From: Raillietiella orientalis | Taxonomy: Eukaryota | Assembly (NCBI GenBank): GCA_036172245.1 | Contig: JAYWIR010000025.1 | Location: forward strand, 2,852,001-2,916,000 | Length of the DNA: 64,000 nucleotides | Direction: 5' to 3' | Shown here: in pieces, positions 5,331-59,565 of the stretch | How the letters are laid out: every line of letters starts with the position of its first letter | Position numbering within the stretch: the first letter of the stretch is position 1 | Notes under the pieces: generated by a model | Told to the model about the DNA's origin: nothing | Databases searched by the model: none | What the model saw: the letters and a program-made list of their open reading frames with translations, nothing else | Position numbers and translations under genes: made by a program

Positions 5331-5336
5331 TCCAGC

Positions 5337-6260
5337 AGGTTCACCCGCCGAGATTCTAACCCTCTCCTTCCCTTCTCTCTCGGCACAGGAGAGGGAGGTT
5401 CGCGCAGCACCGAGCGCGTCGGCCGCGCCCCGTCCAGCCATCTCTCGGACCCGCTGCATCCAGTGCCACGGTGCCATCAACTTGCTCGGGGTCACAAGCC
5501 ACCCAGCGCCTCGAGCAGCCGTTTGCGGCACTCCTGGCCATGCGACGCACTGCTTCACCGCTTGAGGGAGCCGGGAAGGGATCGCGGCCCCCTGCAAAAG
5601 CCTCACCCCTGCGGCGCGCCTCCGCCTCGACCCGCATCTGCCGCTGCCCGAGGGGAGGAGACGGTCGTCTGGCCTGCCCCTTCGGCAGCGCCCGTGACGC
5701 GCTCGCAAGTGCCCCGCCAAGGAAGCGCAAAGACCTCGCGTTCCACCCGTCTCGACGGAGGACGACTTCCGGGTGGTCGTTGGAGCCCGTGCCGCCGGGA
5801 ACGGCCACGCTCTCTAGGCTCCTGAGACACCCCCTTTCGACGGGAGCAGGTGATCCGACGGCCAGGCATGGACGAAACGGCTGGAACATCGGCGCGCACC
5901 TCCCGCAGCGACTGGTCCCGACCGACGTGGCTGAGGATTCCCGGAGAGGATGCTGTCACACCTTCGTGCGGACAGGGCAAGAAGAAGATGGTGGCATCCC
6001 GTGGAATCCCCTCCCCCTCCCCTTCCGTTCGCTCGACGGACAGAGCCGGTTCGCATGCCTTCCCTTTCCTTCCTTCTTTCCTTTCTTCCTTCCCCGACGC
6101 TCGCTCGAGCGCATTGCCCGGCTTGGGTTGCTGGGAAAGGAAGGGGGAGCGCGCGGTTCGCGCAGCTGGCCGCCCCGTTCGTTCCCTTCTTCCCTCGGGA
6201 GGAGGAGGTCGGGCGGCCAGGATCTCCGAATTGCCGTGCACCGCCGTCTTCTCGATGCCG
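5337..6260 (+). repeat. Left arm of a 924-bp inverted duplication (content resembles a decayed LINE ORF1/gag zinc-knuckle region)
   Basis: Reverse complement of 8792-9715, with only about 5 substitutions seen by eye. Identical ORF translations appear on opposite strands in the ORF track. Degenerate knuckle GCCHTFVRTGQEEDGG. Confidence 0.95.
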
Positions 6261-8791: not shown

Positions 8792-9715
8792 CGGCATCGA
8801 GAAGGCGGCGGTGCACGGCAATTCGGAGATCCTGGCCGCCCGACCTCCTCCTCCCGAGGGAAGAAGGGAACGAACGGGGCGGCCAGCTGCGCGAACCGCG
8901 CGCTCCCCCTTCCTTTCCCAGCAACCCAAGCCGGGCAATGCGCTCGAGCGAGCGTCGGGGAAGGAAGAAAGGAAAGAAGGAAGGAAAGGGAAGGCATGCG
9001 AACCGGCTCTGTCCGTCGAGCGAACGGAAGGGGAGGGGGAGGGGATTCCACGGGATGCCACCATCTTCTTCTTGCCCTGTCCGCACGAAGGTGTGACAGC
9101 ATCCTCTCCGGGAATCCTCAGCCACGTCGGTCGGGACCAGTCGCTGCGGGAGGTGCGCGCCGATGTTCCAGCCGTTTCGTCCATGCCTGGCCGTCGGATC
9201 ACCTGCTCCCGTCGAAAGGGGGTGTCTCAGGAGCCTAGAGAGCGTGGCCGTTCCCGGCGGCACGGGCTCCAACGACCACCCGGAAGTCGTCCTCCGTCGA
9301 GACGGGTGGAACGCGAGGTCTTTGCGCTTCCTTGGCGGGGCACTTGCGAGCGCGTCACGGGCGCTGCCGAAGGGGCAGGCCAGACGACCGTCTCCTCCCC
9401 TCGGGCAGCGGCAGATGCGGGTCGAGGCGGAGGCGCGCCGCAGGGGTGAGGCTTTTGCAGGGGGCCGCGATCCCTTCCCGGCTCCCTCAAGCGGTGAAGC
9501 AGTGCGTCGCATGGCCAGGAGTGCCGCAAACGGCTGCTCGAGGCGCTGGGTGGCTTGTGACCCCGAGCAAGTTGATGGCACCGTGGCACTGGATGCAGCG
9601 GGTCCGAGAGATGGCTGGACGGGACGCGGCCGACGCGCTCGGTGCTGCGCGAACCTCCCTCTCCCGTGCCGAGAGAGAAGGGAAGGAGAGGGTTAGAATC
9701 CCGGCGGGTAAACCT
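8792..9715 (-). repeat. Right arm of the 924-bp inverted duplication
   Basis: Reverse complement of 5337-6260. Confidence 0.95.
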
Positions 9716-10049
9716 TCTCTACAGGGACGTTACCTGGACAAGGAACGCTCTCCAGTATCGCGACACCCGCTGGAGACCTGACCGTCGCCTCCAAAGACGA
9801 GCTGGACAGGTGCTGGAAGCGATGGAGACTATGGAACATCCCTCCCTTGCGTTGTTTCGACCTCTAACCTTTTTCCCCTTGACTTGCACTTATCCTGCCG
9901 CCGACTAGAAGAACTCCGTGGTCGGGAGAAGGTGATCAGCGAGGAAAGCAGGTCGGTCCTACCGTAGTGCGACCTCCCCTTCGGACAGTGTGAGTCGAGT
10001 GAATCTTCATGCATCCACTTTTCTGAGGGTCCAAAATTTCACCTGGGAG

Positions 10050-20659: not shown

Positions 20660-21297
20660 ATGATAGTGGCCTGTTTGTCTAGGATGATGGATATCCTTCG
20701 GGGGTTCTCCTGTTTTCTCTGCTTTCCTTCCAGCTTTTTTGTTTTTTCTCGTTTCCGTTTTTTGATTCGCTAAGTAATCAGAACCGGAAAAGGAAATCGG
20801 AAAGGATCCGCTTCAGGATTTCTTTTCCGGAGGGAACCCACAAGAGAACCTCTCCCTATTTTCTCCTCCTTCGAAGAGAACCCCGAAGGAACGCTTCCGA
20901 TTTCTCTCTGAAGAGAGATTCCCCGAAGGGAACAGAGCGCTTCTGGACACTCTGGAGAAACGACCCCACTACTGGAGACCTACACCGAGGGGGGTATCAA
21001 CCAGCTCCATTGTCACAACCTGAGAGTAACCTCGAAGGGACCGGCCCCTTGATTCCTGGAAGGATTCCGGACAGTCAACTTCTAATCCCGGCCAGTCGAC
21101 GGGGGCATCTGGGAGTTTCCGGCTTACGCCAGCGCCATCCCCGAAGGTCAACCAGAGTTCCACGGAAGAAGGGAAGGGGACTCGAAATCCACGATGCACT
21201 CATTTCTCGAGGTCGATCCTTTCTCGGGTGGGATTCGAACCCACAAAGCTTGGTACCACGAGCGGAGCTGTGGGCAGCCTCATAGCCGCCAACGAAG
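20660..21297 (-). mobile_element. tRNA-derived SINE-like element with internal hairpin array, copy A
   Basis: B-box GGTTCGAATCC (21241-21231 on minus), a conserved downstream block gtgcatcgtggatttcgagtc, and repeated hairpins (cccttcgggg, ccttcgggg) with GAGAA-rich linkers. Homologous to the 34.2 kb and 52.4 kb copies. Confidence 0.75.
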
Positions 21298-28725: not shown

Positions 28726-31700
28726 CGCTTCCTCGTTCGTAAGAGATCTCTCCCACCGCTACCATCCTCGAAGAGAAACTTCGAGGAGGTTTCTAAAATT
28801 CTGCCTTCCGCGGGTGCTGCAATGCGGCGGCTGACCGAATGGCGTCGATTGCCGCTATCTTTTTCTACAATCCGACGGCCAAAGTAATGTCCTAGTGATA
28901 ATACGCCATTTTGCTTGTCTCCCGTTTCTATGGAAGCGGAACTGAAAAGCCCGAAGGCTTGTGGGCATGCTGGGTGCAGGAACGCATCCGTTGTATATAC
29001 GGTACCTTCTCGACTTGGTACACTTCTTTCACATTGTCCGGGTCTTCCATCGCTTCTGGATGCGTCTCATCCCGCGACATTCCACACCCACCAAATCGGG
29101 GAAGAAATCTCCACGCACCTCTCCTTTTTTCTTGGAACCAACTCGCCGTGAATCGGTCCTCGCAGCGGGTGCCGCAGGTCGAGATGGTTCGTAGCACTCA
29201 CCATAACAACGTCGTAGCTCTACGAGTCGCGCAGATGTCCGTCTGAGCCCTTGCATCGTAGGTTCGCGAGGACAGCTCCGGGATTGCCCCCACGCTCTCC
29301 TAACTTGCTCGACGGGAAGTCACCGGAAGCCTCTGTGTTATTACACATGCTGGAGCTCGTTGGTCACCCGACGGGGAAGGGGGGAGGATCAACCATCTGC
29401 GTGGAACGCGATAGAAGGTGTCCCTCCTCTCCCAAGGGGGAGGAGGACAAGCAGTTCCACAATCAGAGGGGAACCCTGAAGGGCTCCCTGAGGAGGTTTC
29501 CTCAGAGATTTCCTGGGAGGAAATCCCGGAAATTCTGGTCAGCCGACGGTAGGCGTCCGGATTCCACCGGTGCCGTCCCACCCGAAGCCCGCAGGCCAAC
29601 CAGCTCCGTCCCATGAGGGGGGTGAGGAAGGAGCTCCTACCACTTGCTCATTGCCATGAACAAGAACCTCGGCTTCCATGGAAACTCACGCCGGGCCCCA
29701 GGCGTCTTGAAAGCGGGAGCCCAAGAGTTCCAAGAGTGTCACTTACGACTCCTACTGTTATTAAGGGAGGATGAGGGGGAAGGGGGACACACTGACATCG
29801 CAAACAAGCCCAACAGGTGCACTCACTTTTTTTTTTCATCCACTGTTGTCCAAATGCTTGATGGATCGCCTCTGGTAGAAATATCTCGCTTCACTTGACT
29901 ACGGAGATCGTCAAAAGAAGACCTGCATGCTCCCTCCTTACTGCCTGGTTGTTCGTCCCTTCACCTTGAATTAGCTGACTGCGGAAGCGACCTCCTTCGG
30001 AAAGGTGCTGCAAACTGCTGCTGCCCCGCTGCCGACTTCCTCAGCTCGAAGAGCTCGCTCGAGCTCAAGCACTCGTCCCCTGCCACCGCCTTGGGGACGC
30101 TCAGGTTCGGGTCCACGGCAGCTCGCTCCAGAAACTGAACGGCCATCCCGCAGTCAAGGAGCTCGAAGGATTCAGAATTTTTCATGTTTCCCGGTTGCCA
30201 ATCCTAACTCCCTGCGAGTCGGGTCCCCTCGGCTGATGCCGATACTTTCGGTTTCCATTGCCGCCCTTCCATAGGAACAAGATTGGCCGGGATTCTACTC
30301 TGCAAGAACAGGATATTTGAATTTCGTTTCGACGAAATGTGATCTCCTCTGCTGCGGCTCCTTGGCAAGGGAGCACTCCCTTGCTCTGTCGTGATTCCCT
30401 GATTGCTTTGGACCAGGCACTTTGCCCACGTCTAAAAGCGCGCGCGCGGGTTCCCAATTCCGTCCAAGAGCACCAAGCTCAAGTCTGTCGCTCTCTTTCG
30501 CTTTTGTCCCCCTCCCGGCCCGTTCTTCCTGTGTTCTTCCTCCTGAGTCGGGATGGTCGTGGCTACGGTGTGTCTGTTCCATATTTCTCCCTTTCCTTTC
30601 TGAACAGAATGGCCGATATTTATGGACAATGAGCGGGTGACTACCAGTAGACGGATTTGTTTTCGATACATCTTAGAGGATGCTGTTCTCTGGGAGTTGA
30701 GCTTTTGTTCCTTGCCAGTCTTGGAATGGGATCTCTAGAGAAACTAGAAGCAGGTGGCTGTGCAAAAGGTCTTGCCCACTTTACTCCGGGCTCCTCATGC
30801 TGAAGACACCGGGTGGACGTTGCGTGCTGAGATTTTCCTGTCGCATACGCGTGTATCAGGCTGCACGCACTGCAGAGCTGTCCGCTTCTTTTCCTTCCAT
30901 ATCTTTAAAAGCAAACTCCAAGGAATTGACAGGCGACAGTAGGCAGCAATACCGGAAACCAGGAATGGAAGGCACTGAAGATGCTCATTACAAGGAACCC
31001 CCGAAGACAAGGGACGAGCCTGAAATCTCACAAGGGTAACTCGGAAAGTCTCCTGCTGATTTCTCTGGCACTCCATCGCAGACAAACCCTTATGTGCACG
31101 TATGGTTGCAGGAGTGGATTCGGGCAATTGAAAGCCAAAGGTTTGTTTTAAATAGGCGGGTAGGAGTAGCCAGTGATTCTTTTAGCATATAACTGCTAAA
31201 ATGACCAACGTCACTTTGCTTTCTTATCCTGATGAAATTCATCCGCTAAAGGCTTCGGCCAATTTTTTGCAATAAATGTCAAAAAACGCGCACTGACACG
31301 ATGTACGACCAGTACCTCACAAAGTATGAAGGTCTCTGTATGAACCGATTATGCTTTTCCTTGTTCTTTGTCCATTCAATGCGTTTAGCATTTGGCTATC
31401 ATTTCGAGCTCCAAAGCAACCATTTCCTCTCCCAAATAGGGAAACTTTATTTCACAAGGTTCGAGCTGACTGTGAAAATTTGCGGGCGGCAATCTGTACC
31501 GTAGACTGCCGCCGGTCCCATGCAACGAAGCTTCGGTGCAGCCTGATGCTGTAGCTCGCTACATGGCGATGAGAGGTAGAGAGTGACAGCATCCACGTCG
31601 CCGCTGCGACCACTCAGTTTGAGTAGATCATCTTCATTTTGAAAGGAATGTGTCCTCCTTCCCCTCCTCCTCCTTCTCCTGCTTCTTTTATGAAATTTTT

Positions 31701-31763: not shown

Positions 31764-31767
<4 letters not shown>

Positions 31768-31828
<61 letters not shown>
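31768..31828. repeat. (AT)n microsatellite, ~30 units
   Basis: Directly visible. Confidence 0.99.
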
Positions 31829-31831
<3 letters not shown>

Positions 31832-34186: not shown

Positions 34187-34945
34187 GTGAGGCCCACGTC
34201 TGGCTGCGGCCTCCGTCAGGCACCACCTGGTGTCGCAGGTTCGAATCCCGCCCGGGGGGGAGGGGCCATGCCGAGAACGCGGGGGTGCATCGTGGGTTTC
34301 GAGTCGCCCCCCTCCCACAGGATGACTCTGGGTGGTCACGGATGTTGATGACTGGTGGGACGCGCGTTTACGTTGGAAACCTGATCTCCCGGCCGGTTAA
34401 TGGCCGGGATGGGAAGTTGGGCCACCAGAGTCCTTCGCCAGTTCCCTTCGGGGTTCCTCTCCAGCAATGGAGCCTCTCTATTCGACGGGGGCACCCGGCT
34501 TCCAGCTCGCTCGCGCACCCCACCAATGCCGCACCCGAAGACCAGTGGCCAATCAGCGACGCCATTGTGTTCCATGGAGTTTCCGTTTACCCCTTCCCTC
34601 TCCCCTCTCCGGGAGACCTCTTCAGAGTGTAAGAAGCGCTCAACCCTTCAGAGAAGTAAACAAGGAGCGATTCCTTTGCGGATTCGCTCCTGAGAGGGAA
34701 TCAGGAGCGGCTCCCACAAACCAGGGGACCCTCCGATTCATGGGGACCGGAGAGAATGAAGAAGAGGGTGTCTCCGGGGTCTCCTTCGGAGACCACTAGG
34801 GAGAGGGTTCCCTTCGGGGCTCCCTCCCAAGAGTAAGAGAGGAATGGACTTCTTCCTCCGGGAGACCTTCCTGGATCAATCAGGGTGGTCCCTGCGGGGT
34901 TTCTTCCTGACTGAGTCACACGCACCCTCAGGTGGCGTAGCAGCT
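34187..34945 (+). mobile_element. tRNA-derived SINE-like element with internal hairpin array, copy B
   Basis: B-box GGTTCGAATCC at 34238-34248, then gtgcatcgtgggtttcgagtc and cccacaggatga, hairpin units (ggagcgattcc-tttgc-ggattcgctcc; cccttcgggg), and a 3' caccctcaggtggcgt shared with copy C. Confidence 0.8.
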
Positions 34946-44437: not shown

Positions 44438-45742
44438 TTACTTGGGATTCATGGTCTCCTTTATCTTCTTTAGGGAGGATGCTACAGCACTTTCTGGGAC
44501 TGATGACTCCAATGCCTTATGTTTACATAACTCCAATGAAAGCAAATATGCACAGACTTTCCTATATTTGTGAACTCCCGAGATCTGAAAATGGAAGAAT
44601 AAAAATCAAGTCTCCCATAATGCTCCTTCTCACCTTGATGAAGTACACTGTCTTATCTTCTTCATCTGAAGACAAAGCAGTTGCAGAATCGTGGTGACAG
44701 CGAGACTGTGAGACAGTTGGTGTCTCAATTCCAGATATGGTAGCTTGAGGATCTAATACTGAGGACTGGCTGTTGAGATCAGAGAATTGAGATTCCTCTT
44801 GGCTAACTGCTGACAGAACCTTGCCTTCTTCTGTTCTTTTATCCCTACTTGGACAGGCACACACTCTCAGGTTCAGTGTAGAGTGGCCCAATTCATTGCC
44901 TCTGAGAACAATTTACAATATGTGAATGATTGTCTCATACTTACTCAAAATCTTCTAATCTAAAAACTACGGCAACTGCCTGGCGCCCAGGCCCACCAAC
45001 GCAGCTGTGTCTGCACATGAAACGAAATAATAGGGTGGCAAGTGATGAACCTGGATTGCAGAAGGCCAAAGGAGCACGCACAGAATTGTGCTCGTTTTCA
45101 ACAAGATAAGTAGCCTGGGAGGAGATGATCCGAATAAAATGCTCCCTAAGATGCTCTGGGAAATCTAGATGCACAAAAATAGTGAGTGTGGCAACCACAG
45201 CACATGAAAACTCACTAAGGTTGGTGAATCGATCCATTACATGATGTTTGCAACGTTTCAAGGGAACGTGGACCAAAGAAGCATCAACAAAATATGCTGT
45301 AGCTCTCACAAAAAGCCAATGAGATATGGCTTTGGGCAATACTTCAAAACTAATTGGAACTGTGGAATTAATTTCTACAAACAACTTATTCAATAAGGGG
45401 GAAAACTGAAACAAAATCAGTGAAATAACGCAGCTGATGACTAACAGCCCAAGTAGTGGTGCGGGAAGTTAATTCCTCTGGAAAAACTACATGGAATCCT
45501 AACTCTCCTGGTAAATTATCAAACTGGATTCCTGAATGTGGGTTCCCAGCAGTCAAATCACAAACCCTGTCATCACATCCCAGAATGGCCTCGTCAAATT
45601 CTAAAGTATCTCTAGTAGTTCCATGGGACATGAGAAAGTTTATTAGGATATCCACTTACACAAAATTTTTCAAATCCTGCACGAGAGTGCTATCACATGT
45701 TAGGGAATACTCCATCGGGTTATGATCATCGAGATCCATCAT
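44438..45742 (-). CDS. p53: p53-family transcription factor (DNA-binding domain plus oligomerization domain), 357 aa, 6 exons
   Basis: Exons 45742-45660, 45611-45446, 45405-45216, 45164-44945, 44901-44634 and 44584-44438 are all GT-AG and phase-consistent (introns 48, 40, 51, 43, 49 nt). Motifs: FSPLLNKLFV, RCKHH, FMCRHSCVGGPGR, RVCACPSRDKRTEE, and tetramerization-like YFIKISGVHKYRKV..LEL. An in-frame TGA directly precedes the ATG. Confidence 0.93.
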
Positions 45743-51214: not shown

Positions 51215-51261
<47 letters not shown>

Positions 51262-51450: not shown

Positions 51451-52410
51451 TCGAATCGAGAAATAGAAATAAAATGCAATATGTAGTTCTTGAAATTGTA
51501 ACTTCTGGCAACTCTGAATTCCTATTCAGTGGAGCCTCAGGAAAAGGCGAGGGGGGAGGGAGGACCGTGGTAATTTCGATGCGGTGAGGAAATTGAAATT
51601 TTTTCAAGGTCCACAATTCGATCCACGTGAGGATTCTACCTAAAAGTTCCGAATCGAACCTGTGCTCAAGATGAAACTCTCCACGCGTTCACAGTTCGCA
51701 TCCTCGTGTGTGCAAATGTGTTTTGCAAATGCGAGTGGACTCGCGTCAACAGAACGAATCCTCTTTCAAAAAGCGAAAGACAGTTTTTTTTTTCTTCTTC
51801 CTTTCCTCCCTTTCTAAATTCCGTGCTGCGACCGAGCTGTCGTCATGCCAGCATACAACATAGAGCACTTCAAGTACATTCGAGTGATGGAAAGCAGTAA
51901 TTACTTCACCAACTTCACAGGATGGGTACACTGGATACGATTCACGAGATAAATGAGTTTCTACTTTTGCAGATCGAAGCAACAGGCCGTTCAGATTCCG
52001 AGCATTTTTCAGTTTCAGGATCAGGATTCTGGTCCCTTTATCTTTCCGTTGTCTTCATTTTCATGTGATTGATATGCAGGCGTTAGGGCTTCCAGCTATG
52101 ACCATTTTTTTCTTTTTCTCTTCTCCCGATGCATTTCGTAGACACAAAAACCACATGTTTTACCTTTCAGCATAAAATGAAGGGTGCTTGTACCCATATC
52201 GCACTGTCCACTACGTCTGCGTCGTAACCACAAAATATTACTGTAAGGAGAATGAACTAATAATAGGAAGATAATGTTTGCGTTTTTTTTGTATTTTTTG
52301 CGTTCCATGAGTATCACATGCCTCTCAGGAATCTCGGTTTACGTCAGCAGTAAGCATGCCAACCTCTACTTCTCCTCTAACCTATGCTAACCTCTAATCT
52401 AAAGCATGCC

Positions 52411-53168
52411 CGCGTCGGAGGCCGTGTGGTTACGGTGGTCTCCGCGCGTGGCGCCACCAAGCGTCGTGGGTTCGAATACTCGGAAGGAATCGACGCAGTG
52501 CGTCGTGGGTCCCGAGTTCACCCCACAGGATGATGCTGGTTGACCTACATTCATCCGGGTGCAGCACTGGTAGCGGTTGAAACCGGATGCCCTCGATGAG
52601 GGCAGAGACAAATGGGAGTCGACTTCCGGGTCCTTCCAGGAATCACGGAATAGGAGCTCTCCTCCGGTTGGGAAGGAGCGGACCCCCCATTACGGGGGGA
52701 TTCTCCAAATCGTGCTCGTGGAGTAGGTGTATCGCCACCACCTCTGCAGAGAGTGCAGAGAAGGAACCGATCCCTTCGGGGAAGCTGCGTCCTTCTGAAT
52801 TTCAGAAGTGTCCCTTCCGGGTTCTCTTCAGAGGAGCAGAAACAGGAGCGGATCCCTTGCGGGGATCCCTCCGGAGAAGAAATTCCAGGATCGGATCCTT
52901 TCCGGGTTCCCTTCAGAGAAGAAAGAATGGAGCGGACCCTCTTGGGGTCCTCCGGAGAGAATAAGGAAGGAGATTCCCTTCTGGATTCTCCTTCGGAGAC
53001 AACCAGGGTGGAGGTGATCTCCATTTCCGGTGATCCCTCCCCAGGCGTGAGGGGAACGGACTCCGAGTACTTCCTGGATTCATAGGGCGGACCCCTCCCG
53101 GGGTACCCCCTGTCTTGAAGAAATGCTCACCCTCGGGTGGCGTGGAACCGTGTCTAACCTATGCCGTA
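52411..53168 (+). mobile_element. tRNA-derived SINE-like element with internal hairpin array, copy C (full length, with target-site duplication)
   Basis: A-box-like ggccgtgtggtta, B-box GGTTCGAATAC at 52469-52479, and ~40-nt hairpin units starting near 52845, 52888, 52929, 52965 and 53006. Flanked by the 15-bp direct repeat aatctaaagcatgcc (52396-52410 and 53169-53183). Confidence 0.88.
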
Positions 53169-55199
53169 AATCTAAAGCATGCCTCCAGTCATCAACAGAA
53201 TCACGGAATTTTCAGAGTTGACACGAAGCCGTGGATGCTGCTGGGCTGGAAGGGGTAGCAGTTGTGGATTATTTGAGGACACGTTTCGTGTACGGTTTGC
53301 AGAAAAAGACTTCCATAATGGTAGTTCGATAAACTGCGATTCATCAAAGGTTTCCGTTTGGAAACTGAAGCAAGACCCACTTGAGCATTTCTCCTTTTCT
53401 GCCTTCGTTCTTAATGATATGTTAGTTAAATTTCGTTGATCATTGCTTTTCTCACCTATATAAAACCAAATGTCTAAAGCGAGTTTAAGAAAATGTCTTA
53501 AACTCTTCTTGTCCCTCCTTTTTCTTCATTATATCAACACATTCAATCTCACATACAGTAAAACTTCCAAATTTTCCAGATGTAAGAGAAAGGAAGGACT
53601 CTTTATGTTTTTTCTATTTTTCTTCTTAAATATGAAATTATTAGGATAGGAAAGCTATGTCACAGGAAGGTAAAAGCCCACGATGTGAACTAACAGGCGT
53701 TAAGAGAGTATACTATCACATCTCTCAGCATGTAATCTTGTTGTTCAGTTACGAATGGTTATTCATGTTCAACACGTGATTTTTAAACAAGATAATGGAG
53801 CTTTTGAACAACTTCCTTGCACTGTTGCTTTGGATTCAAAGCTGCTCAGTTGAGAATGCTCCAGCTATCATTCTTTCTTCCTCTTGACTGCTGTTTGAAA
53901 ATTCAGTGCTTTGAAAAGATCTTAGTTGTTTAATTTTGCTTCTGCTGCCCACGTCGTTATTCGAAGCAGTTTGTTCTGACGACTTGAAACAGAACTGGAA
54001 GAACTCACAATGCATTAAAAAACGCAAATGATGACTCGTGTGTTTCAGGGTTCTTTAATGCACACGAATTAGAAATGGAAGACAGAAGAATCACCTTTCG
54101 GACTCTCCGTGTTATCCCTTTTGCTTTTGTTTTTTTCATGCAAAGCATGCAGCTACTTTGGAACAAAAACATCTGTTTCTTTGAATTCGACCCTTGAAAA
54201 TTTTTACATAATTACTAATTCAATTTTCTTTTGTAATCAAAATTAAATACTAGGCATCTTACTTTTGAAATTCATATAAACCTCATTGTTTTAACCAATA
54301 TTAAATCACATGCAAAAATGCTTACTAACAGTTTCAAGCATAATTAAATCCTAAATCTAATACATATCTTTCTGTCATATTAGTTTTCAATTTAAACAAG
54401 AAATTTTTCCTTTTTGGTGTAAACAAACTATTCTATTAAACTACTCCCTGCCTTTTTAAAACAATTAAATTTAAAATTTATTTAGTACTATGAATATTTA
54501 TCCCCCCCCCCCCCATCCCCGATCATTGTGTTCAGAATCTCAGAAACAGAATGAAAGACATCAGTGGCAAAAAACGCAGCTTCCTGAAAGTCCACTCTTG
54601 AAGTAAGAATGTGATCTTTCGGATACATCTCGTTGTAGCAGTTTTATATTTTACTACAGGAATATGTTGTGCTTGCGCACTTGTTTTACAACACAATTTG
54701 AGGCAGGAATGATCCGATGGATTTTTCGCTTTTGTCTCTGCCATTTCGGATGACCCCCAAAATGCTTCAACATGCAAATGACTTTTTTCCGAATGGAGGC
54801 ATATCAAGGAAATGGAGAGGTAGACGAAGGCACGTCTTCCGAAGCTTCGAGCTTCGTGTGGGCGGATGAAGTCCCACAGAGCTTTTCCGCGGCAAACAAG
54901 TGCAAACCGGAAGTCGACACACGAGCCGGGGAGAAGCGATGCAGAGACACAATGTGGCTGAAGCGAGAAACCTCAATTTCGAAACCTGGGTATCCAATAG
55001 GGGACATTATGCATTAACTCATCCTCTCATCTGCAGATCAGATGATCGCGTTCCCACGTTGCTGAGGAAATGCCCAGATAGAAATCCAGATTCCGGTACC
55101 AGAAAAGGATCAGCCCAAACCCTACTGGATGCAGTAAACCGTTCAAATGAAAATCGATCAAGTCTTATTTTCCGGAAACTGGGATCGGCTGTCAACCTC

Positions 55200-56023: not shown

Positions 56024-57234
56024 ATGATGATCCTTCTCTCAATTTGGGGAGGACTTTGGTTCAGGAGCATACTGGCTGATTTCGGTGATACCATGCTGCT
56101 GTTGGAAACAGAATCAGCATTTGTCTATGACTTGCACATGTTAGATCAAAACAACAGCGGTAGGATCAAAATGAATTTTACTTCTCATGAAAATTGTAGA
56201 TTCGCAACGACGCTTCCAGCCTCGGTTGGAACACCTTCCAGGATTACCCAGTTGGTTATCTTACAGTTCCAACGAAGAGAAAAACCTTGCAGTGCTATAT
56301 GGTGCCCCTCTGGAGCCTGGCAAAATCAAGGTAATGCATGATAGCACGCAAAAATGTAACACAAAAGTGCTGCAGATAGACGTAACCATTACTGATTTGG
56401 GTACTTTCACTTTCACAACCAAACGATTGATCCTTGAATGCATCCAGTCACCAAGTATGTTACTTTGAATTTGAATTTAGATTGATTTGGATTTAGGGAA
56501 GCCACTTAGACAAGTAGAGTTGATGTTGCTAAACTGGGATCTTAAAGATGTATTGCTCCAACAGAACATAGCTACCTTGCTGAATGTGTTCACATCCAAG
56601 TTGTGGCCTGAAAGTCAGAAAGATATTACCTTGACAGGAATCCAACTTCCAGCATTCAGAAATGATAAACAATTTATTGAGACTGGAAAAGACGGGTATG
56701 CTGGAATAGATCTGACTAATCAAATATAAGTATAATAATATTAGGATAGTGGTCAGAGTAGGTAGTGAAGCGCCTTTCTCAAGGCAGCTGCAATGGTTTC
56801 ACCAGGAAGCAATTCCTAAACAGTTGTGTATTCCACGCTATCAGAAAACCTCTGCAGAACGTTATTTTCGAGAAAGAGGACTTGCTCCTGAATGGTGCTC
56901 CCTCAAACTGATAGAATTAGCCCAACCAAAGTTATCCTCCCCAACAGCTTCTCTTTTTTCTTTTCCTTCACGAAAAGAGAAACCTCAACACACAATCTTC
57001 CACAATCTCGCCACAATACTGGTGCTACCCTGCGTTTTACTAATTATTTTCACATGTGGAGGGCTTATTGTGGTGTTGAAGGGGACCAAGCCAATAGCTC
57101 CTCCCCCTGTCGGTACTTGCGAATTCGCTTCCACTCGCCAGTATTATAATTCATCTGGAAGTGGGTCTCAACTACCACTGCTGCCAAGGTGCCATCGGGC
57201 TGCACCATTGCTTCTGGACACTCCCCCAACTTAA
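56024..57234 (+). CDS. SGCE: Alpha/epsilon-sarcoglycan family type I membrane protein, 344 aa, 5 exons
   Basis: Exons 56024-56159, 56200-56330, 56376-56454, 56497-56695 and 56745-57234 (introns 40, 45, 42, 49 nt). Signal peptide; PGLPSWLSY..VLYGAP; LLNVFTSKLWPES; GIVVRVGSEAPFS..L; C..YQKTSAERYFRERGLAPEWCSLKL; and TM segment LATILVLPCVLLIIFTCGGLIVVL. Invertebrates have a single alpha/epsilon ortholog. Confidence 0.85.
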
Positions 57235-59565
57235 TAGTTACAATGTTCCCCAAGTGTGGGCATGGATTTTTCCGAGAACCTGCCATGAAGCCCAAAATTA
57301 AGGCTTTTTCTGGCCGTGTCACCTTATTAGAGTTTCGGAACATTTCCTGGGCTTCTGCCATTTGCTCTTTCTGAATTACAAGAGAAAATAAAAAATACAG
57401 CCTCTGGTAACCTCTAACTTTCTCACCGTCAGTTGTAGGGAACGCTTTGTTACTGGGGGATCTTCCACAGTTTGTGAAATTGGTTTAGGTGCAGGAGAAG
57501 GTGGCGAATTCTCCCTATTGGTGGGCCTCATTAGTTCTGAACTAGCCACCTGAACAACTGAAGACTGGGAAAAAGTATCACGTGCTGCTGGCATTGGTGA
57601 TGGAGGCATTAATGGGGTGAGAGTAGCATATGTAGGAAGGGGAGTAGATGGAGTAGGTGGAGGAAGATAACATGGAGTAGCAGGTGCTGAGATACCAGGG
57701 CTGGAAAGTGGCAAACCAGCAGCATACTCTGGAGTAGCAGTATTGGTTTCTGATGCTTTCAGTGGATTCTCTCCCTCTGGCAATAGAAAATGGCAAGTGA
57801 ATATGCAACAATAGTGGTCTGAATTCTACCTGGTGCACGTTTCCTCTTTTTTGCTTGATTCCCTATGGGCTGCTCATTAATATCCAAAAGTTTAATGCCT
57901 CCTTCTTTATGCCCTGACAGAGATCGCAGCATGGAACGGGGCAATGTTTGTCCAGAACCACTCCGTGTCAACAAGCCACTCAATTTGCTTGGAATACCCT
58001 TTAGAGGAGCTAATAACTATTGTGAAGACCCTGCCAAGCAATTTAATCCTTACTGGTATCATTCATTTTACGAGGTAATCCCCTGGTACGCAAAGGTACA
58101 GCAGTAATCACATTTTTTTTCAAATGATTGGCTGCTTCTGCTGATTTACTGAGTAACTCAGCACGCAAAGCAGCAGCTTTAGGCTTGCGTTTCAGCTGAA
58201 AGTGTTTACAGGATTGATTGGCTGTTCCAGATATGTCAGACAAGATGTTCTTATTCAGAAAAGAACATTCCAGCGGAAGCAGGCCGGCAACTTCTCCGTG
58301 TCTCTTCACTAATCTTTCCAATGAGTCAGTATGCACAATGCCAGCTCAACACTCACAAACTTTCTTGATATCACTAAGGAGGTCCTGAAAAATCTTCCGG
58401 TTCTCTTCTGGTTCCTTAATCTCCAAATTTAACATGCCAGTGGATGGATAAGGCTTGAGAATTTCTGATAACATGGCAACCCATGACTCAGTATCTGCAG
58501 TGCCCACTTCAAGAATTTCCTCTAACTCGGATCGCCACTAATATCAAAATTAATAAGATCAACATTATGGATATACTATTCCAAAAAAAGAAAAAAATTC
58601 GCTTGAATTTGGGCAAAACTTATCAATTACAGATTTTGTAAGAAATAAGTTCATATTTAAAAAACACAGTTTAAAAAAAATCTGGCCAAAAAACATTTGC
58701 ATCAAATGAAAAAAATTAAATTTAAAACACACAGAAGAGTTTTTCATTTTTAAAAATCCAGTTAGGTGTTAACAAAGTCTTCTCCAGATATAAACGAATG
58801 AAGTTCGCCATTTATTTCTCCTTTTTATTTTTATAAAAAGAGGAATACTTGAATTCCACACACAGATTACAACCATCTTGGTGCATGCATTATCCTCGGC
58901 ACAAATATCCTGCAAAATGTGGTCCTTGCTTGAACGTTCATTGTACACTTATCATTAATACAGTTACAAATGAACTAAATAATTTTCCTTCGGCCACTTT
59001 CATTCAAATTTGAAAAACACAATACCTTTAGCGGCAAAACTTCGAAAGAACAGACTCAGGCTGCATTTTCACTTTAAGAGTCAAGGGCCAATAAAAAGAC
59101 AAAGGAGAAGAAGAAAAGGAAAAATGGCAATCCGATGGAAGATGAAATTTTGATTATTCCAAACGTCGCAGGGCAAATCTGTCCAGAGTAAAACACACAC
59201 ACACACACCCACACACATCGATGAAATGAACGAAACGCACATTTTATTCCTAAGCAACTGTGATGTTCTGCTCATGGCTGTCCACGAGAACTTTGCACTT
59301 ACACACAAACACTTGATTAAAAAATTCAGGAGATACTATACGAAGAATTTCTTACTTCTTCCAAACTGCGTTTCGGAATATGGAAAAAGGAAAGCAATAA
59401 TTTGAGCTTCACTTGGACTTGCAGCTCAATGAAACAGTCTCTAATGTTCCTCAACACATCAGATTTCAGCTGGGAACAGATGGATCCTCCAACCCAGGAA
59501 TCGTTTGAAGTCCCCAACTTGTTGTGCAGCCAAAGAGATGTATCACTATCCCTCACATTTGCCAT
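57065..59565 (-). CDS. NELFA: Negative elongation factor A, 493 aa, 6 exons
   Basis: Exons 59565-59356, 58537-58357, 58308-58054, 58009-57830, 57776-57427 and 57370-57065 (introns 818, 48, 44, 53, 56 nt). Hallmark motifs: MANVRDSDTSLWLHNKLG, VKLKLLLSFFHIP, LPLECSFLNK, KHFQLKRKPKAAALRAELL, GIKLLDINEQP and AQEMFRNSNKVTRPEKALILGFMAGSRKNPCP..FQMNYNTGEWKR. Confidence 0.97.

Follow-up and report, generated by a model that had tools for sequence, protein, structure and literature searches.

To which class of element does a 743-nucleotide (nt) insert in the genome of Raillietiella orientalis belong, and are the hairpins that fill its body kept as RNA structure? The insert lies at 52411-53153 (+) of a 64,000-nt stretch, hereafter the window (assembly GCA_036172245.1, contig JAYWIR010000025.1, positions 2,852,001 to 2,916,000 of the forward strand), and all coordinates count from the first base of that window. 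An original prediction had described the locus as a short interspersed element (SINE) of RNA polymerase III (Pol III) type, with a tRNA-like head and a body of tandem hairpins selected for their structure. We refer to the insert as copy C of an element family. The element is dispersed, its copies have common edges, copy C has a flank duplication, no coding signal is present, and the array in the body is older than the split between the copies. On comparison of the copies, we consider it fairly probable that copy C belongs to a family of non-autonomous, SINE-type retroposons that is old and moderately abundant, in a genome with animal-type genes. The element probably consists of four modules, namely a degenerate tRNA-related head (probably of tRNA-Ser type), a core of ~220 nt, a body formed by a duplicated array, and a 3' stem-loop.

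Two further, diverged copies (A and B) came to light when the element was compared with the window by BLAST, and an nhmmer search with a head-and-core profile of the 5' half added a fragment without the head (fragment D, E = 3.9e-07):

34191-34938, + strand: copy B, full length (~748 nt), diverged, with the 3' motif as in copy C
20789-21297, - strand: copy A, ~509 nt, comprising head, core and four units, with a perfect T-arm GTGGGTTCGAATCCCAC and without the 3' motif
29454-29621, - strand: fragment D, 168 nt, 5'-truncated, comprising core and array start

The copies thus lie at four separate sites and in both orientations, in keeping with the SINE trait of a short (<1 kb), interspersed and non-tandem repeat. 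The abundance of the family is judged on these three copies and one fragment within the 64-kb window. Pairwise identity is 57-66% in our own alignments and reaches 73% in the best BLAST segment. The similarity begins at the same point, within a few bases, in the copies and ends at GGTGGCGT in copies B and C; beyond these common 5' and 3' edges nothing is alike between the copies. Copy A stops inside the array, and an A-rich stretch (~20745-20780, -) follows in place of the 3' motif. This stretch could point to a different tail or subfamily, or be mere flank sequence.

Copy C and its flanks comprise the following features:

52376-52410, no strand: left flank duplication, made up of a 12-bp block, 8 unmatched nt and a 15-bp block; the repeats are exact
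52411-53152, + strand: copy C (head, core, array and 3' stem-loop), similar to copies A and B from 52412 to ~53143-53151
52420-52479, + strand: tRNA-like head, with an A-box-like string at 52420-52432 and the B-box GGTTCGAATAC at 52469-52479
52504-52517, + strand: second T-arm-like box CGTGGGTCCCGAGT, found as CGTGGNTNNCGAGT in three of three copies
52518-52740, + strand: conserved core, including a hairpin at 52588-52604; aligns with copies A and B and fragment D
52761-53123, + strand: degenerate array of ~41-nt units, with clear units at 52803-52967 and weaker ones on both sides, as seen by Tandem Repeats Finder (TRF), autocorrelation, a unit hidden Markov model (HMM) and unit alignment
53128-53143, + strand: conserved 3' terminal stem-loop CACCCTCGGGTGGCGT, which recurs in copy B at 34923-34938
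53153-53183, no strand: right flank duplication, made up of a 12-bp block, 4 unmatched nt and a 15-bp block

Much of the original description is borne out by these features, including the second B-box-like block, the tandem array of units of about 40 nt, the C(UUCG)G-type loops, the conserved 3' motif and the 15-bp duplication. The last of these, AATCTAAAGCATGCC, is an exact direct repeat on both sides of copy C (52396-52410 and 53169-53183), and it is adjoined by a second exact repeat of 12 bp, TCTAACCTATGC (52376-52387 and 53153-53164). For comparison, the longest word shared by any of 300 shuffled flank pairs was 10 bp. Since the 12-bp and 15-bp blocks are separated by unmatched nucleotides (8 to the left and 4 to the right of copy C), the duplicated flank spans ~31-35 bp. 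A further AAGCATGCC, a partial copy of the flank repeat, stands at 52352 in the left flank; the target may therefore have been locally repetitive already, and the true target-site duplication may differ in length from the duplicated flank. At the other end of the element, the 3' motif CACCCTCGGGTGGCGT has two matches in the window against 0.05 expected, and copies B and C both keep the 3' CACCCTCRGGTGGCGT. The stem-loop common to these two copies could derive from a long interspersed element (LINE).

The array was detected by several methods. In copy C, TRF detects a repeat of period 42-43 (1.9-3.1 copies, 68-82% matches), and autocorrelation peaks lie at 41-42 nt in copy C, at 40 nt in copy B, and at 84, then 96 and 44 nt in copy A. 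A unit HMM, built from four copy C units that match it by construction, recognises these 4 clear units plus 1-3 weak ones in copy C, and its best 11 matches all fall inside A, B, C and D. The approximate consensus of the unit, GGAGC-GGATCCC-TTCG-GGGWTCCC-TYC-RGAGAAGAAA, is a palindrome in which outer arms GGAG/CTCC enclose a CCC-TTCG-GGG core, and a purine-rich spacer follows. The loop motif CCTTCGGRG is enriched, with 11 matches in the window where 2.0 would be expected; eight of them lie within copies A, B and C and read in the sense direction. BLAST aligns the array of copy C with that of copy A over ~170 nt and, in the 3' part, with that of copy B over ~190 nt. The array was therefore present in the common ancestor of the copies and is a module of the element. 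A local minisatellite was considered and rejected: degenerate tandem DNA though it is, the array is found again, in alignable form, in A and B. What holds of the minisatellite idea is that the array is a decayed internal tandem repeat.

Upstream of the array, the head carries the most strongly conserved signals of the element. The B-box is kept as GGTTCGAAT, invariant in three of three full copies, and the second T-arm-like box follows 24-42 nt after it; the two boxes together are the best-conserved parts of the element. The combined double-box signature has three sites in the window, which are the three copies, and none in 100 shuffles. No tRNA-gene cloverleaf was recognised by ARAGORN, or by Rfam near the gathering score. 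At relaxed thresholds ARAGORN still calls nothing in copy C and only weak candidates in copies B and A. The sole match to the Rfam tRNA model is the 17-nt T-arm of copy A, whose 12.1 bits fall short of the gathering score of 29. We also compared the heads with a panel of 15 distinct prokaryotic tRNAs, called by ARAGORN in metagenome loci, using 50 shuffles per head as a control. The head of copy A was most similar to a tRNA-Ser (42 of 57 positions identical, 74%), scoring 42 against a shuffled maximum of 30.5, and the head of copy B reached 38 of 56 (68%), with a score of 36 against 31.5; both alignments are shorter than 60 nt and refer to a prokaryotic panel. The three criteria by which SINEBase defines a SINE include an interspersed repeat of <1 kb and at least 60% identity to tRNA, 5S or 7SL RNA over at least 60 nt (PMC3531059), a tRNA identity for which the present element appears borderline. 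The A and B boxes are treated there as an indication rather than proof (Vassetzky and Kramerov 2012, PMC3531059). Descent of the head from a tRNA, quite possibly one of the Ser type, is plausible, short of established. The sense strand of the four copies (2,175 nt) contains no TTTT, where ~4.8 would be expected, although no single copy is significant in this respect; this is weak evidence, compatible with Pol III transcription.

Beyond the window, the double-box signature matched 30 metagenome loci, roughly as many as had been estimated beforehand for chance. The B-box half was the T-arm of a prokaryotic tRNA in most of them, and when all 30 were compared with copies A, B and C by BLAST, matches did not extend beyond 24 nt. 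In prokaryote genome contigs, a 21-mer of the second box and the 3'-end pattern had 0 matches each. An Rfam search, named in the original prediction as a check, yielded no family at gathering score. The best scores of Rfam 15 models at the copy C locus were 10.7-20 bits against gathering scores of 45-57, and in the scan of the whole window the only match on the element was mir-320, far under its gathering score, in and just past the 3' end of copy A.

We read the element as SINE-like because it is dispersed and non-coding, carries a Pol III-type B-box and has a flank duplication. Such an element would be transcribed by Pol III from its internal promoter, a LINE-encoded reverse transcriptase would recognise its 3' stem-loop, and target-primed reverse transcription would insert the copy, giving rise to the flank duplication. 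Several findings weigh against this reading. The A-box-like string is found only in copy C and is not kept in A or B, ARAGORN reports 0 tRNAs in the whole window, and the Rfam tRNA model has no match in copy C even at E <= 10 on 131 bases. A tRNA-Ser is again the best panel match to the head of copy C (45 of 72 positions, 62%), with a score of 28.5 that lies within the shuffled range. The duplicated flank of ~31-35 bp with its unmatched middle is long for a target-primed insertion, and part of the flank repeat could predate the insertion. Target-site duplication, a trait of SINE and LINE retroposons, is present at copy C only of copies A-C; none was detected at A or B, which fits the age of those copies. 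Neither copy B nor copy C ends in poly(A) or in a simple-repeat tail. Finally, the 743 nt of the element exceed the maximum among the 175 families that SINEBase held in 2012, whose lengths are given as 75-662 nt (PMC3531059). Thus, of the predicted tRNA-Ser/Leu-like head the B-box stands, in three of three copies, and the A-box and a tRNA recognisable by ARAGORN do not. The predicted SINE nature is upheld by dispersal, lack of coding, the B-box and the flank duplication, and is weakened by the lack of a recognisable tRNA in the head.

The most serious alternative is that the element belongs to another class of non-autonomous element or is a fragment of one, such as a LINE or Penelope-like untranslated region or a composite, in which case the B-box likeness would be incidental and Pol III would play no part. 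The unusual length of both the element and its flank duplication, the lack of a simple-repeat tail and the confinement of the tRNA likeness to the T-arm, with weak likeness elsewhere, speak for this alternative, as does the 5' truncation of fragment D, which is frequent in LINE-derived copies. We nevertheless hold it to be unlikely. The likeness of the copies ends at the same 5' and 3' points with nothing beyond, and the B-box and second box, which would be incidental here, are what is best conserved. In addition, no reverse transcriptase or other mobile-element domain was found by Pfam in 443 open reading frames (ORFs) of the window. Of these, 300 are of at least 90 aa and were drawn from its full length; the others are 143 of the 182 ORFs of 55-89 aa that lie past 36 kb.

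We now turn to the hairpins. The original prediction held that the body is a structure-selected scaffold, whose units differ in sequence and yet keep their base pairing; the array would be maintained by selection as a protein-binding array, as repeated reverse-transcriptase sites or as a small-RNA precursor. Several observations are in line with such a scaffold. The array was already present in the ancestral element, UUCG-type loops are enriched and lie in sense orientation inside the copies, and two of the units (C2 and C4) form perfect stems of 6-8 bp with different sequences (GGATCCC/GGGATCC and GGACCC/GGGTCC). The sense strand folds better than its dinucleotide shuffles (z = -4.15), and in copies C, A and D local folds of the sense strand surpass those of the antisense strand in stability by 13-19 kcal/mol, which is a small point in favour of a predicted RNA structure.

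The comparison among units points the other way. We aligned 15 units on sequence only, scored an 11-pair hairpin and shuffled the 3' partners among units. Pairing was found in 73.4% of cells against 73.2% after shuffling, with 258 of 500 shuffles at least as high, and the covariation score of 0.269 (against 0.247) was reached in 82 of 500 shuffles. Neither pairing nor covariation among the 15 units is therefore in excess of the control, and the claim that the units keep their base pairing is not borne out. Sliding the partner by one column still gave 71.5% pairing, and the middle helix of the unit hairpin pairs in just 42% of cells. Pairing at the level of the shuffles is thus due to the composition of the palindromic consensus and not to compensated change.

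Comparison between copies led to the same result. Each copy was folded locally and its stems were projected onto the aligned partner copy, with a null in which the observed substitutions were permuted among positions of the same base. Stem retention exceeded this null in none of the 10 comparisons (z from -1.61 to 1.44, smallest P 0.107). Substitution rates in the array are alike in stems (0.30-0.35) and at unpaired positions (0.32-0.39), and pairs that are broken between copies are about as common as, or commoner than, pairs that are kept but changed. RNAalifold on pairs of copies was set aside as evidence because it picks consistent pairs by construction. The folding advantage is also shared by the opposite strand: antisense z is -5.44 (20 shuffles for each strand), as DNA palindromes give this on both strands, and copy B lacks the sense-strand advantage in local folds. 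Together with the absence of an Rfam family match, these results make a selected scaffold improbable; the prediction draws no support from unit covariation or stem retention, and neither strand is clearly preferred in folding. The hairpins are best read as arising from repetition of a palindromic unit, and maintenance of individual hairpins has no support in the copies.

Neutral decay of dispersed copies limits the reach of these tests, which address the copies rather than the master sequence. One could accordingly picture a long Pol III retroposon (>700 nt) whose master copy keeps the UUCG-capped hairpin array as a working RNA scaffold, with covariation absent among the dispersed copies because of neutral decay after insertion; we regard this, too, as a doubtful prospect. 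In one version of this picture, the array would be made up of serial duplicates of the 3' stem-loop to which the partner reverse transcriptase is recruited, and would offer several priming sites, an idea that the ending of copy A inside the array would fit.

Two structural observations concern parts of the element outside the array. In the minimum-energy fold, GCGCCACC in the head (52451-52458) pairs with the 3' GGTGGCGT (53136-53143) and closes the whole element; a comparable complement, CCACCTG/CAGGTGG, was seen by eye in copy B (~34220 and ~34930). This predicted pairing of head and 3' end is a possible panhandle. In the core, a strong hairpin occurs at a similar place with a different stem in the two copies, GCCCTC/GAGGGC in copy C (52588-52604) and CCCGGCC/GGCCGGG in copy B (34387-34409). 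The difference could be a compensated change between subfamilies, in a region where the four-copy alignment is ambiguous.

Long open frames run over the array on both strands, as expected from its composition. They include antisense ORFs of 191 aa in copy C (52554-53126) and 200 aa in copy A, and raise the idea that the array, in this or a sense frame, encodes a repetitive protein. Pfam finds 0 families in the ORFs on the element, and the antisense ORFs of A and C have only 30% identity and 22% gaps, against a DNA identity of up to 73%, which shows that the frame has not been conserved; in copy B it is broken into three shorter ORFs. Among 1.84 billion representative proteins there were only two matches at E <= 0.001, both repetitive and of low complexity. 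A repetitive protein encoded by the array is therefore hardly credible, and the array is no more a coding repeat than a local minisatellite. One protein of the representative library (P0004, 369 aa) is built of ~57-aa tandem repeats and matches the antisense ORF weakly (E = 4.7e-05). Its repeats hold GVSNP-type strings, which is what translation of tRNA T-arm-like DNA would give, and it is probably a translated tRNA-derived tandem repeat from another assembly. Terminal inverted repeats, a long terminal repeat, a Helitron end and a hammerhead core were rejected on inspection of the copy C sequence by eye, with the Rfam scans as the only tool-based test.

The surroundings of the element fall into two parts of sharply different composition. 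Positions 1-35000 are mostly 51-69% GC, whereas 36000-64000 are 36-52% GC and contain recognisable genes. The first 35 kb have open frames in all six frames and include one kilobase of 41% GC, at 31-32 kb, around an (AT)n run; none of 150 ORFs scanned over the first 25 kb has a Pfam match. ORFs between 36 and 64 kb match three Pfam families, P53 DNA-binding, alpha/epsilon sarcoglycan and NELF-A N-terminal, and the gene content is therefore animal-type. The P53 DNA-binding domain (44565-45468, -) is very divergent and occupies two adjacent ORFs, of 175 aa (E = 4.6e-26) and 116 aa. Word-seeded searches of 5.8 billion protein clusters found no relative of this P53-like exon, a protein atlas gave only leads below 0.9 to P53 clusters, mostly arthropod, and the matches to p53, p63 and p73 in the PDB are no stronger than E = 4e-12. 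Two ORFs at 56175-57231 (+) contain alpha/epsilon sarcoglycan domains, and two at 58046-58537 (-) the NELF-A N-terminal domain (E = 3.5e-15). A 927-nt inverted repeat (5334-6260 and 8792-9718) has arms that are 99% complementary, 2,531 nt between them and ORFs without a Pfam family. Candidates for its nature are a foldback element, a terminal-inverted-repeat element and an artefact of the assembly. Microsatellites are present as (AC)21.5 at 51217-51259 and as a long (AT)n run at 31765-31831, the latter with a spurious mir-297 match.

How does the element compare with SINEs that are already described? SINEs with dimeric tRNA heads exist, such as Twin of Culex mosquitoes. The present element resembles Twin in having two tRNA-like T-arm boxes in tandem near its 5' end, 24-42 nt apart, and differs from it in that the second block is a T-arm-like stretch of ~14-20 nt and not a second tRNA-like unit. 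To our knowledge, the long repeat array has no counterpart in Twin. At the other end, the terminal stem-loop CACCC-TCG-GGGTG of copies B and C, without poly(A), recalls the stringent type of SINE/LINE pair, in which a common 3' stem-loop is recognised by the LINE reverse transcriptase, for example UnaSINE1 and UnaL2 of the eel. It is unlike that pair in that no reverse transcriptase was found among the ORFs scanned in the window.

Measured against tRNA-derived SINEs as outlined in the SINEBase paper, the element is likewise shorter than 1 kb, interspersed and non-coding, with a 5' B-box and T-arm, a body and one flank duplication. It is set apart by a head that is unrecognised as tRNA and by the lack of a simple-repeat or poly(A) tail in B and C. 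Apart from its unusual length, the repeat family is at present fairly ordinary, and it opens no new question. Should it prove abundant, it would be useful for repeat annotation in a poorly sampled animal-type genome, and it would be an example of a SINE at or over the upper length limit whose body arose by internal duplication of a palindromic unit. A body of this kind has precedent, since the same paper describes CHRS as a "quasi-oligomer" in which a degenerate motif of ~20 nt is repeated more than 10 times (PMC3531059). In both CHRS and the present element the body is a degenerate internal tandem motif; the unit here is ~41 nt, palindromic and present in ~4-8 copies, a distinction drawn from the description of CHRS only. 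The family is best read as belonging to the SINEs, where it would be a new or at any rate unplaced member whose body is internally repeated, or "quasi-oligomeric".

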